Assembly (NCBI GenBank): GCA_964016885.1
Contig: OZ024761.1
Coordinates: forward strand, 23,932,001 to 23,996,000
Origin: Eledone cirrhosa
Lineage: Eukaryota
Direction of reading: 5' to 3'
Length of the DNA: 64,000 bases
In this document: positions 7,333 to 50,974 of the stretch, one piece after another
Numbering within the stretch: position 1 is the first letter of the stretch
Layout: the number at the start of each line of letters is the position of its first letter
Made by a program: the position numbers and the translations under genes
The notes under the pieces: model-generated
What the model was told of the DNA's origin: nothing
Databases searched by the model: none
What the model saw: the letters and a program-made list of their open reading frames with translations, nothing else

Positions 7333-7529
7333 TATAACGAAGGAAATGTGGTAAGGAACCAGGTGGACCATAACGCACCAAAGTACTCAATACTTAGGGT
7401 TGTAGAGTGGGTAATAGGAACGAGTAGGACCCCGACGGCTGAGCTCAAGCCGTTTCGACGGCTAATTCAGTCCAGAATTAGCCGTCGAAACGGCTTGAGC
7501 TCAGCCGTCGGGGTCCTACTCGTTCCTAT
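7333..7529. mobile_element. Family A hammerhead-derived element as a head-to-head inverted pair (55-bp arms 7414-7468 / 7475-7529) in (TA)n
   Basis: GAAA-CGGCT-loop-AGCCG-TC is a hammerhead helix III with a GUC site. Other copies at 18122, 18829, 23905, 50522-50820 and (partial) 36957. Confidence 0.8.
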
Positions 7530-10500
7530 ATATATATATACTTAGACACTCACACACAAATATATATATCTAGGTAGATAGGTGGTCCTATAAAAAACTA
7601 CTCGTACATAGTCCACAATTGTATTTCATGAAAGTAATGGCGGCGAAAATCCCCGGATGTGGCAGTATCGTCTGCTTTTTGTGAATATCTTTGAAACGCA
7701 GATGAATTGAATGTGAAAAAAGAATGAAAACGATAACTTAATAAAAACAAAAGGAAAAAATGGTTTCGAATTCTAGGCAAAGATAGGGTATTGTTTCTTC
7801 TTCTTCTTCTTCTTCTTCTTCTTCTTCTTCTTCTTCTTCTTCTTCTTCTTCTTCTTCTTCTTCTTCTTCTTCTTCTTCTTACCATACCCACCACCAACAC
7901 GGCAGTCATCATCATCACTATAATCAAGAACATTATTTTTGTTATTATTATTATTATTATTATTATTAATAATAATGATAATATTATTGATATTAGTAAA
8001 ACGAATCCTTTTATCTTGAAAGAGTGATAGATAGATAAATAGAAATATAGTATATATATATATAGGTAGTATCTCTCTCTCGCTCTCTCTCTCTCTGTCT
8101 GTCTCTCTCTCTCTCTCTCTCTCTCTCTCTCTCTCTCTCTCTATATATATATATATATATATATATATAGTATATAGTATATAGTATATATATAGTATCT
8201 ATCTCTCTATCAATCTACCTATATATATATATATATATATAGGTATTATCTCTCTCTCGCTCTCTCTCTCTCTCTGTTTCTCTCTCTCTCTTCTATCTGT
8301 CTCTCTCTCTCTCTTTCTATATATATATATATAGTATATAGTATATATATAGTATCTATCTATCTATCTACCTACCTATATATATATATAGGTAGGTATA
8401 TACTATCTATCCATCTATATATATATATATATATAGATGGTATCTCTCTCCCCCTTTCTCTCTCTCTCTCTCACTCTCTCTCTCTCTATATATATATATA
8501 TACACAGATAGAGATAGATAGGGATAGGTAAGTGTGTAGATGGCAGTAATAATCTTCTTCGTTAATAATTACATTAGTTAAAAGGACTATCTTTACTTCA
8601 ACCCACATTTAACCGCCGGTGAAAATACTCAAATTCTACAGCTCTCTCAATAGAGGGGGGTTTATATACACACACATGTATATATATATATATATATATA
8701 TATATATATATATATATATATATATATATATATATATATATATATACGTATATATATGTATATATATATATATGTATATATATATATATATACATATATA
8801 TATATATATATATATGTATATATATATACATATATATATATATGTATATATATGTATATATATATACATATATATATATATATATGTATATAATGCATAT
8901 GTTTTAATATGTACATATATATATATGTATATGTATGTATATATATATATATATATATATATACATATATATATATATATATGTATATATATATATATAT
9001 ATATATATATATATATATATATATATATGTATATATATATATATATGTATATATATATATATATATATATATGTATATAATGCATATGTTTTAATATGTA
9101 CATATATATATATGTATATGTATGTATATATATATATATATGTATATGTATATATATATATGTATATGTATATATATATATGTATATATATGTATATATG
9201 TATATATATATATATATATATATATATATATATATATATATGTGTGTGTGTGTGTATGTACATATTCATACATATGCATTATATATATGCATATATATAT
9301 ATATATGTGTGTGTGTGTATATATATATATATATATATATTCAAATGCATACATATATGCATACACACACACGCGCACACTAGCACACACATACATAAAC
9401 ACACACAAACACACACACACACATATATATATATATATATATATATATATATATATATATATATATATCGATAAAAACGGAGGAAGAGGAAGAAAAAATA
9501 AAGATGTGGAAGTGAGAGAGAGGGAGAGAGAGATAGGGAGTGTGAGAGCGGTAGAGAGAGAGATAGAGAGAGAGAGAGAGAGAGAGAGAGAGAGAGAGAG
9601 AGAGAGAGAGAGAGAGAGGGACGGAAATGTGAGACAGAAATAAAGAGGGGGTGGAGAGAGAAAGAGAGAAGATAAAAGGAGGGGGAGAGAGGAAGGGGAG
9701 GAATGTAAAAAAAAATATAAACGAAAAAGAAAAACGAAGAATATTTTATTGTTGTTGTTGTATTTCACCAATTTAGTGATAATTCCATTTCTCTTTCATG
9801 ATAGAATGAGAGAATGATGGATAGAGAGGGCGGGGAGAGAGAAAGAGAGGGGGAGGGCGAGAGAGAGAGAGGAAGAAATTGAGTGAGTGAAAGGGAGAAA
9901 GAGAGAGAGTGTGTGTGAGAGAGAGAGTGAGAGAAGAAGAATGTGAGGAGGTGGGAGAGAGAGAGAGAGAAAGAGAAAGGAAGAAATTGAAAGAGAGAGA
10001 GAGAGAGAAAGGAAGAACGTGAGAGAGAGATGGAGAGAGAGAGAGAGAGAGAAAGAGAGAGAGAGAGAAAGGAAGAACGTGAGAGAGATATGGAGAGAGA
10101 GAGAGAGAGAGGGAGAGAGAAAGAGAGAGAGAGAGAGAGAGAGAGAGAGAGAGAGAGAGAGAGAGGGAATAAGAAATGAAAAAGATAAAGCAAGAAGAAA
10201 AGAAAAGAAAAGCGTTCTTGTCCGAACTAAATTAAAAATGGTTGATAGTAATCAGGAATGGAAGAGTTGAAATTAGAAGATGTAAGTTAGATGATTAAAT
10301 TGAGAGAGAGAGGGGGTGAGAGGGGGGGGGAGAGACTGAGTGAGAGGGGGGTAGAGACTGAGAGAGAGGGTGGGGAGAGAGAAATGGTGAGAGAGGGGGA
10401 GAGAGAGACTGAGAGAGGAGGGGGGGGGAGAGACAGAGAGAGGGAGAGGGTGAGAGAAGGAAGTAGACGACGTCGAGAGAGCGGCTGAAGGAGAAGAAGA

Positions 10501-47965: not shown

Positions 47966-50365
47966 CCCTCTTCCTGCTATATCAAGCGTTAACCTAATAT
48001 ATACCTTCCATATACTGTACCGATTGTGTTGTTATTTCTTCTTTACCTTTTACCCCCCCCCCCCCCCCACATATATATATATATATGTGTGTCTATATTT
48101 ATATATACATGTATGTATATATATATATATATATGTAGGTATCTATCTATTTACATATGAAAGCAAACACACATACATATATATATATATATATATATAT
48201 ATATATATATATATATATATATATATATATATATATATATATATATGTATATATATATATATATATATATATTTATATATATATATATATATATGTATAT
48301 ATACTGTATATTTATACACACATATGCACCCTCACACACACACACACACACACATATATATATATATATATATATATATATATATATATATATATATACC
48401 CATACCCACCCTCACACACACACACACACACATAAACACACCAGGAAATCTACACACAGTGACACATCGTTGAACTATGCCGAAAATGAAAGTAGTGAGA
48501 AGAGAAAAAAAAAGGCGCCATTTTGTTAACTTTCATTGCTTGTTTATTTGTATTTAAACTGAGGCCCTTTTTATATATATTTTTAGGGGGTCACAGCAGG
48601 GGATATTAAAATGGCGGCGGCTTGTGTTTTAAAGTAATTGCAACGTGTAAAGTTAACAACAACAACAACGTGTAAAGTTAACAACAAAAAAATATAGGAA
48701 GAACAGCTCCAACAACAACAACAACACCACCACTACCATTTCCACTACCGTCACTACCACCACCAACATCACCAGCACCACCTACACTACCACCTACACC
48801 ATCATCACCAGCACTATCACCACCAGCACCACCTCCACCACCACTACCAAAACTACCACCTCCACCACCACCACCACCACCACCACCACCGCCACCACCT
48901 CCACCATCATCACTACCAACTCCACCACTACTATAACCATCACTACCACTACTACCACCATCATCACCACCACCACTACCACCACCATGACCACCACTAC
49001 CACCATCATCACCACCACTACTATAACCACCATGACTACCACCACCACTACCACCATCATCACCACCACTACTATAACCATCACTACCACCACTACCACC
49101 ACCACTACCACCATCATCACAACCACCATCACTACCACCACTACTATAACCACCACTACCACCACCACCACCACCACCACCACCACCACCACCACCAGTT
49201 GTTGGTGTTGGTGTTGTTGTTGTTGGTGTTGGTGTTGTTGGTGTTGTTGGTGTTGGTGTTGTTGTTGTTGGTGTTGTTGGTGTTGGTGTTGGTGGTGTTG
49301 TTGTTGGTGTTGTTGGTGTTGTTGGTGTTGGTGTTGGTGTTGTTGTTGTTGTTGGTGTTGGTGTTGTTGTTGTTGTTGGTGTTGGTGTTGGTGGTGTTGT
49401 TGTTGGTGTTGTTGGTCTTGGTGTTGGTGTCGGTGTTGTTGTTGGTGTTGTTGTTGTTGTTGGTGTTGGTGTTGGTGGTGTTGTTGTTGGTGTTGTTGGT
49501 CTTGGTGTTGGTGTCGGTGTTGTTGTTGGTGTTGGTGTTGGTGGTGTTGTTGTTGTTAGTGGTGTTGTTGTAATACTCTGGAAGGTTTAAAGAGAACATC
49601 TCCAGCTTAACCTTAGACCAGCAGAAGACCAGGATATTAACATACCGTTGTTCTGTTAACAGAGTAATTCTTATTCCTAAATGAATAACTTATTAACATT
49701 CTTAAATCCTCACATTCCACCATTCTACTGCCGTCGTATTCCGTCATTCCACAGGCAACCTATTATATGTCTTCAAGGGGGTGGATTGGCAGAATCGGTA
49801 GAGCGTCGGACAGCATGCTTTATGGCATAGAGTTATTGCCAACGACCTTCACACACACACGCACACGCACCCCACCCCCCACACACACTCACTCACATAC
49901 ACAGATACATGCACTCACACATCCACACAGACAAATACACACACACACACGCACACAGACAGAGGTACCCACACACACCCACACTCACACACACTCACAC
50001 ACACCCACCCACACTCACACACACACACATACACGCACAGACACTTGCACAGACACACACACCCACATACAGCCACCAGCACCCACACACAGACACACAT
50101 ATACCCACACTCACACATACCCAGCCCGGTTCCAGAATCAGGTTCGATCATTAATAGACCGTTCCTCGAGCTGATCGACAATGAAACATATGTAATATGT
50201 AATTAAATATGTATATAATACAACACTGATTCTTTGTTCCCTTATATGTTAATACTATGGATACACTGCTCCCCAAGAGCACGGAGTGCTCATTCGGCAT
50301 ACCGCCTACGGACGCAATTAATTTGTACGTTAATACATATATATATATAGGAAAATGTTTGACCC

Positions 50366-50974
50366 CGTCCACCATATAACTTCTTTCACCATGGCCACCG
50401 TACAGAGGAAAACCGCCTCTCTTTCGTTTTTGAAAGAGTCTGGCGGTTTGATCCTTACTATGGACTCGATAGATAGATATACTGTGGTTACCCCTGATTG
50501 AACCCGGAATAACTTTATATATATATCGAAGGAGTTGTGGTAAGAAACCAGATGGACCATAAAGCACCAGAGTACTCAATACTTAGGGTAGTAGAGTGGG
50601 TAATAGGAAAATGTTTGACCCCGACGGCAGAGCTCAAGCCGTTTCGACGGCTATTTCTGGACTCCATCACCATTACAGACCAGAAATAGCCGTCAAAACG
50701 GCTTGAGCTCTGCCGTCGGGGTCAAACATTTTCCTATTACCCACTCTACTACCCTAAGTATTGAGTACTCTGGTGCTTTATGGTCCATCTGGTTTCTTAC
50801 CACAACTCCTTCGATATATATATAAAGTTATTCCGGGTTCAATCAGGGGTAACCACAGTATATCTATCTATCGAGTCCATAGTAAGGATCAAACCGCCAG
50901 ACTCTTTCAAAAACGAAAGAGAGGCGGTTTTCCTCTGTACGGTGGCTATGGTGAAAGAAGTTATATGGTGGACG
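50366..50974. repeat. 295-bp-arm near-perfect palindrome (50366-50660 / 50680-50974)
   Basis: The arms are reverse complements, with about 2 mismatches seen and a 19-bp spacer. The same ORFs appear on both strands in the track. Confidence 0.95.

Follow-up and report, generated by a model that had tools for sequence, protein, structure and literature searches.

The insertion footprint of endonuclease-carrying (EN+) Penelope-like elements (PLEs) is described, in the portions of PMC8557442 drawn on here, as an adjacent inverted and 5'-truncated copy, a tail of 30-40 bp often present at one end only and a bias towards (TA)n; how tandem and inverted PLE ends form is called undefined there, and Naiads are described as having no hammerheads. 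Further sources, also used here and below in excerpt, report inverted terminal repeats whose size varies between copies (PMC2377424), minimal hammerheads on opposite strands 100-700 bp apart (PMC4209133) and inverted pseudo-long terminal repeats (pLTRs) with short extensions as curation marks (PMC8969392). Self-priming on an antisense template was proposed for rotifer PLEs (PMC3846280), and in vitro a PLE protein cuts and extends both strands, favouring AT-rich DNA, two adjacent internal start sites bound the genomic tail and a dimer is predicted (PMC11167929). Twin priming and fold-back duplications are described for L1, a long interspersed nuclear element (LINE) (PMC10191854; bioRxiv 10.1101/2024.12.14.628481), and retrozymes were proposed to be moved by PLE proteins (PMC7229834; bioRxiv 10.64898/2026.07.22.740005). 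Here we describe family A, a high-copy, non-coding repeat of ~140 nt that occurs as head-to-head pairs in TA tracts, in a 64,000-nucleotide stretch of the Eledone cirrhosa genome (assembly GCA_964016885.1, contig OZ024761.1, positions 23,932,001 to 23,996,000; called the window throughout).

The window is animal-type DNA (33% GC), of which 47% is masked as short tandem repeats. Five inverted family A pairs, reported in an earlier note on this DNA, are present near the positions given there. Judged by architecture, on which the suggested PLE membership of family A rests, they most likely represent a minimal version, free of open reading frames (ORFs), of the insertion footprint known from PLEs, and each pair was probably built at insertion by the enzyme of a PLE acting in trans. 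The connection with PLEs, already drawn in the note, fits and is one that the literature had described. EN+ PLE units, in the excerpts from PMC8557442 and PMC3846280, share with family A the 5'-facing inverted copy, the tail at one end, the (TA)n bias, palindromes at the inverted junction, captured flanking DNA and apparently the absence of a discernible target duplication in microsatellites. Family A differs from them in having neither an ORF nor a direct pLTR tandem, in a unit made of arms of 61 and 138 nt, in a tail of 77 nt instead of 30-40, in clustered 5' ends and in possessing only half a hammerhead. Positions within the repeat are counted from the A of AGTCC (+1), and its two end sites are called P2 (+61) and P1 (+138). 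Four simple loci (A7, A18a, A18b and A24) and two further pieces comprise the following features:

7337..7468, minus strand: A7 long arm, +7..138, with its P1 end in (TA)n
7469..7529, plus strand: A7 short arm, +1..61, with its P2 end in (TA)n, abutting the long arm directly
18126..18219, minus strand: A18a long arm, +45..138
18220..18282, plus strand: A18a insert of 2 nt (TG) plus short arm, +1..61
18832..18930, minus strand: A18b long arm, +40..138
18931..18991, plus strand: A18b, one extra T plus short arm, +2..61
23880..23890, plus strand: family A piece of 11 nt ending at P1, facing A24 tail to tail within one TA tract
23909..24046, minus strand: A24 long arm, +1..138
24047..24057, no strand: A24 junction spacer of 11 nt, self-complementary
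24058..24118, plus strand: A24 short arm, +1..61
36955..36995, plus strand: family A fragment, +6..46, with alleles of the fifth locus (A50), fused in tandem to a copy of another family (D) via a common GGGT

One outer end lies at P1 and the other at P2 in five of five loci. These ends, TTCG(T)TATA and TTCCTAT, run into TA tracts of about 6-51 nt, and no outer end of the five loci sits elsewhere than in a TA run. The earlier note had named both sites and their merging into (TA)n correctly; its count of four copies rises to all five loci, A50 beginning at 50347. As it had also stated for the breakpoints, the junction bases are different at each of the five loci. Arm overlap in the simple loci amounts to 55 (A7), 17 (A18a), 22 (A18b) and 61 nt (A24). 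Each arm of A7, A18a and A18b carries sequence missing from its partner; as neither arm is simply copied from the other, either two primings or a later one-sided deletion is needed; at three of the five loci it is 6-44 nt of the short arm that are missing from the long arm. Full arms in direct A-A tandem do not occur in the window, where the tandem joins are those of the A50 short piece and the A-D chimera.

The junctions also bear on whether two separate insertions could have entered one TA tract head to head and then undergone gene conversion or hairpin repair, which we consider very improbable. TA tracts are hit repeatedly, as illustrated by the piece at 23880 and by a joint listed from sequencing reads that runs tail to tail from P1 to P2, but a TA tract lies between the arms at none of the five junctions, and separate insertions would not yield one P1 and one P2 end every time. 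Conversion is further opposed by the differences that the arms retain (2 in 61 in A24, 2 in 137 in A50 and 11 in 78 in a further family, B).

Seven of the 11 family A arms begin at +1 or +2, and each locus has at least one such arm. Under uniform truncation the chance of this clustering is ~4e-6 for one arm per locus and ~6e-5 if either arm of a locus may count. The arms are therefore not random 5' truncations, which corrects their earlier description as 5'-truncated copies. A cap-templated G at -1 was considered as well and dropped: G precedes only two of the six arms starting at +1. Where the outer ends are concerned, families A and D together have mixed ends in six of six pairs (chance at most 0.016 if the sides chose independently). 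The family A strand contains 13 TA and 4 TAT, yet only +59 and +139 serve as ends in the window, the TAT at +83 and +103 having zero use; TA pairing may thus permit priming, and does not choose the site as had been proposed for TA microhomologies. The proposal that both priming positions are internal is likewise not supported as put forward, since P1 may be the end of the RNA; no window copy reads beyond it. From P2 to P1 the distance is 77 nt in family A and ~90 nt in four other families.

Within their overlaps, partner arms differ at 0 of 55 positions in A7, 0 of 17 in A18a, 0 of 22 in A18b, 2 of 61 in A24 and 2 of 137 in A50. That arms are nearer to their own partner than to other loci is borne out for A18a (0 versus 2-5 differences in 17) and A50 (2 differences in 137, compared with 12-16 against the remaining long arms). 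For A24 the distance to A7 and A18b equals that between its own arms (2 versus 2), because each A24 arm has one CpG change, although both its arms have the +10 allele, and A7 and A18b, indistinguishable from each other, are uninformative. Subfamily alleles are common to both arms at three of three informative loci. Measured as summed contig depth in run X1, which is not copy number, the A18a allele pair reaches 46% and 26%, two A50 alleles 50% and 52%, and the A24 allele about 5%; the fragment at 36955 has two A50 alleles. The earlier note was right in placing its variants on both arms, whereas their copy-specific character is contradicted by the reads, in which they are common subfamily alleles. 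Variants on both arms indicate a common source element, not copy-private mutations, and this concordance fits one RNA or two RNAs from one source.

Family A was further followed in 4 of 23 sequencing runs, namely two contig sets (one sample) and two runs of restriction-site-associated DNA (RAD) reads (two samples), with the A24 long arm as mapping reference at 82% likeness. Matching contigs numbered 16,160 and 17,346 in the two sets; in the RAD runs the matches came to 22,850 of 12.5 million reads and 23,546 of 12.8 million. Among 15 of the 19 joints listed there are 13 opposite-strand joints, all at different position pairs, each of them weakly supported (no more than 84 reads and 4 start places, or a single contig per run), and two entries are probably one locus. 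One side falls between +17 and -2 and the other between +31 and +100 in 11 of these 13. Three joints break at the edge of a subfamily-variable stretch, and the true break may lie further on; in six the long arm is broken past P2, so that the arms may not overlap. Together with the five window junctions, these 13 distinct, weakly supported joints agree with the earlier proposal that the pairs are built anew at each insertion. An assembly artefact is ruled out as their origin by the arm substitutions and by several joints that recur in different samples.

A single fixed junction had been named as the mark of a miniature inverted-repeat transposable element (MITE), that is, an inherited palindromic DNA element with terminal inverted repeats and a mutating centre. 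TA flanks and inverted arms do resemble TA-targeting MITEs. Against such an element, the termini P1 and P2 are not inverted repeats of each other, five loci have five junctions, single arms and chimeras (36955) exist, and no joint is dominant among those listed from about 23,000 mapped reads per RAD run, where the joint table, being filtered, indicates that no junction dominates and is not a record of the whole spectrum. We regard this explanation as largely refuted already and exceedingly improbable.

The reads also inform on both ends of the arms. Among the 24 loose-end entries listed (688 further entries exist), (TA)n adjoins P2 in 2782 and 2329 reads of the two RAD runs (agreement 0.84-0.85), and in another subfamily in 1319 and 1427 reads. 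On the 5' side, X21 depth in one mate class declines from 8670 at +13..17 to 791 at +3..7, and the loose ends at this drop are mixed (agreement 0.42-0.50) except for one upstream sequence. The latter recurs upstream of +1 in 792 and 826 reads (0.82-0.83) in a divergent subfamily, was not found in the window and may be a parent element or one deep RAD locus. For the family as a whole the 5' boundary falls between about +1 and +13, made less sharp by end clipping and by differences among subfamilies.

The locus A50 is larger than the earlier note gave and is composed as follows:

50347..50367, minus strand: short P2-ended piece, +41..61, the true left end, 21 nt in (TA)n
50362..50526, minus strand: inverted copy of the right flank, meeting the short piece via 5-of-6 microhomology
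50527..50663, minus strand: left long arm, +1..137
50664..50676, no strand: junction spacer of 13 nt
50677..50813, plus strand: right long arm, +1..137, with its P1 end in (TA)5
50814..50978, plus strand: original flank, made of a TA run, a family-B-like end and the start of a probable LINE ORF2 C-terminal fragment

The palindrome extends over 50362-50978, and its outer 165 bp are flank that does not belong to family A. The two flank copies have 2 differences in 165, one of them at the junction. Within the flank, the family-B-like end has 25/28 matches, and the ORF fragment has 121 relatives in an exhaustive protein search; zf-RVT was detected in six of the nine longer relatives scanned (five above the Pfam cut-off), one of which also has RVT_1. 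By these sequence matches the fragment is likely the C-terminus of a LINE ORF2. Its frame continues to 51160 on the right, which identifies the left flank copy as the duplicate. A reading of A50 as a symmetric pair was rejected, the true left end being the 21-nt P2 piece beyond the flank copy. Most simply, A50 is a fold-back in which the P1 cDNA copied itself and its flank before meeting the P2 piece; read-through RNA from A50 or another locus would yield the same product.

In the insertion process that we propose, the PLE enzyme would cut both strands of the (TA)n target, after which one target end would prime cDNA at P1 (+138) and the other at P2 (+61), with RNA from one source element as template for both. 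The priming sites are likely set by the protein-RNA complex, local TA(T) merely allowing pairing. The cDNA would tend to run off at the RNA 5' end (+1), and a head-to-head join of the two cDNA ends would follow, with 0-13 bases added and the partner frequently truncated. For A50, a fold-back of the first cDNA at +1 is likely, the cDNA copying its own sequence plus 165 nt of flank before it was joined to the P2 piece. Directly seen are the anatomy of the loci, their two ends, the clustering of the 5' starts, the scatter of the junctions and the concordance of arm alleles; the steps themselves, opposite-strand priming included, are what we infer. A more specific form of this process is plausible, and we put it forward tentatively: coupled twin priming by a PLE, in which one dimer would use one RNA with two fixed sites ~80-90 nt apart, each primed from one strand of the cut (TA)n, and both cDNAs would extend to a defined RNA 5' end and be joined or folded back. 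If this is true, the inverted pLTR and the one-sided tail are two faces of one reaction, and the tiny ORF-free families of this genome are its minimal products.

The Anolis Poseidon PLE in vitro (PMC11167929, in excerpt) likewise has two tail-bounding start sites, cuts and extends both strands and acts on an AT-rich target. There, the start site is the same on both strands and is not homologous to the cut DNA, whereas family A loci use one of each site and both sites have TA(T); the excerpt makes no connection with inverted pLTRs. Searches of the open-access literature yielded no publication that relates PLE inversions to twin priming. The architecture is already known; what deserves following is that two fixed sites are used as a pair and that the 5' starts cluster, and family A offers a test bed for the open question of how PLE inverted ends form. 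Its units of about 160-210 bp fit within one read, it is present in a very large number of copies and the source of each arm can be told from its subfamily alleles; genome-wide ends, junctions and alleles could separate coupled twin priming, independent priming and fold-back.

Fold-back after a single priming is an alternative favoured by A24, a near-perfect palindrome with a self-complementary spacer, and by A50, with the inverted copy of its own flank. One cDNA or antisense template would fold back at +1, copy itself and end by pairing with the target at the P2 TAT, and later deletions in the centre would vary the junctions. Allele concordance is directly accounted for in this way, self-priming has been proposed for head-to-head pLTR palindromes (PMC3846280, in excerpt), and duplications of 52-220 bp are described at L1 sites (PMC10191854, in excerpt). 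We nevertheless consider it unlikely: three of the five short arms hold the 6-44 nt missing from the long arm, the break would have to leave the short arm intact exactly at +1/+2 each time, and the TAT at +83 and +103 are never used in the window. P2-ended pieces also exist with no adjacent fold-back partner, namely the short piece of A50 and, in family D, those at 27910 and 57386, and PAc starts at both sites in vitro (PMC11167929, in excerpt).

Several observations weigh against a PLE-driven origin or against details of the proposed process. A Pfam scan of the 88 low-repeat window ORFs of at least 50 aa detected no PLE reverse transcriptase and no GIY-YIG domain, its single hit being an AP-type endonuclease at 62502. 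Family A is non-coding and can hence only be a non-autonomous dependant of an EN+ PLE, but pattern scans of metagenome and viral contigs gave no match to a parent element. Family A has no CUGANGA box, fails the hammerhead descriptor and amounts to half a hammerhead only, and Rfam found no hammerhead in A18a or in family B. The distance between P2 and P1 exceeds the published tail of 30-40 bp, read coverage drops at about +12 and not at +1 (partly owing to subfamily differences), the joint table is filtered and short, and A50 requires an extra fold-back or read-through step.

The enzyme might alternatively be supplied by a LINE that targets TA tracts, the pairs being twin-priming products of the L1 type; LINE fragments are found in the window and a PLE ORF is not, and twin priming leads to 5' inversions in 29.5% of somatic L1 insertions according to the excerpted L1 work. 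L1 twin priming resembles the family A arrangement in producing a 5' inversion by second priming on the other target strand, and L1 fold-back in an inverted duplication of flank by self-annealed ends, similar in size to the A50 copy. The textbook product of L1 twin priming consists of pieces from adjacent, largely non-overlapping parts of one RNA. The arms of family A, in contrast, overlap by 17-61 nt in the four simple loci, its second site is fixed at P2 family-wide and it has no poly(A), while the flank duplication of A50 is situated on the side of P1 and takes in the arm as well. As none of the TA-flanked pairs examined departs from the inverted, unequal plan, and sister families have hammerhead-like motifs like those of PLE pLTRs, we judge a LINE origin to be quite improbable and retain a PLE as the probable source of the enzyme.

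Five more families in the window form inverted pairs of a long and a short arm in TA tracts:

18470-18718: family B, an inverted pair lying in (TA)n and carrying a hammerhead-like motif of type I
54695-54925: family D pair
6293-7314: family E, with both a short and a long arm in TA tracts
25666-25940: TA-flanked inverted pair with unequal arms
28857-29197: TA-flanked inverted pair with unequal arms
36992-37138, 27910-27953, 57386-57455 and 23199-23233: further hammerhead-like family D pieces

Ends are unequal in 10 of 10 TA-flanked inverted pairs of six families, a count that leaves out an old pair at 19083 (77% alike) and an AAT-flanked pair at 33763. The six family D pieces use two end sites: four stop at +74/75 and the other two are long. 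Families A, B and D each start at AGT; similarity between A and B is weak (9 of 500 shuffles). The fusion of A and D at 36955 via GGGT suggests a template switch between two RNAs. Between the two family E arms lie 527 bp of other sequence, together with 38 nt that repeat the end of the long arm in inverted orientation.

By descriptor, family B contains a type I hammerhead-like motif with a perfect core and family D one with a single core mismatch, the chance rate being 2 perfect-core hits in 20 shuffles. By eye, family A shows GAAA, then a stem III of 6 bp whose loop is palindromic, then GTC. A18a and A18b were considered as intact hammerheads with a long stem I; this was dropped, the A24 and A50 long arms being contiguous from +1 and no such joint dominating in the reads. 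Folding of individual arms of A, B and D is no better than that of shuffled sequences (z 0.41, 0.49, -0.53, -1.21), and on the whole window the best 150 of 485 Rfam rows contained microsatellite-driven miRNA matches. Animal retrozymes of the non-LTR kind (PMC7229834 and bioRxiv 10.64898/2026.07.22.740005, in excerpt) are short, non-coding and high-copy like family A; they form direct tandem arrays with a full type I hammerhead per unit, whereas family A is inverted. A relative of family B at 29223-29290 changes both strands of stem I, as seen by eye.

The motif TATTGAGT lies 26-32 nt past the short end in family A (+83), family B (18650) and the family at 28.9 kb (28918), has a near match in a fourth family (58576) and is absent from family D; it is possibly a protein-binding site.

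Other repeats and coding remnants were noted. From 60579 to 64000, a 640-aa ORF followed by an AP-endonuclease ORF forms the 5' part of a LINE that runs off the window. Two related ORF fragments (3542-3877 and 16725-17063) gave no Pfam hit and presumably resemble non-LTR C-termini. Repeats of the form CTGATGA...GAAA are located at 47893-48053, 40727-40886, 29379, 58454, 28710 and 56983, the copy at 47934 having a clear stem II. A separate repeat family with AAT/GAT tails (33763-34124, 1579-1703, 39447-39879 and 47284-47476) forms an inverted and tandem cluster at 33.8 kb, and two tandem arrays occupy 44521-45186 and 45216-45617, with periods of about 32 and 55.

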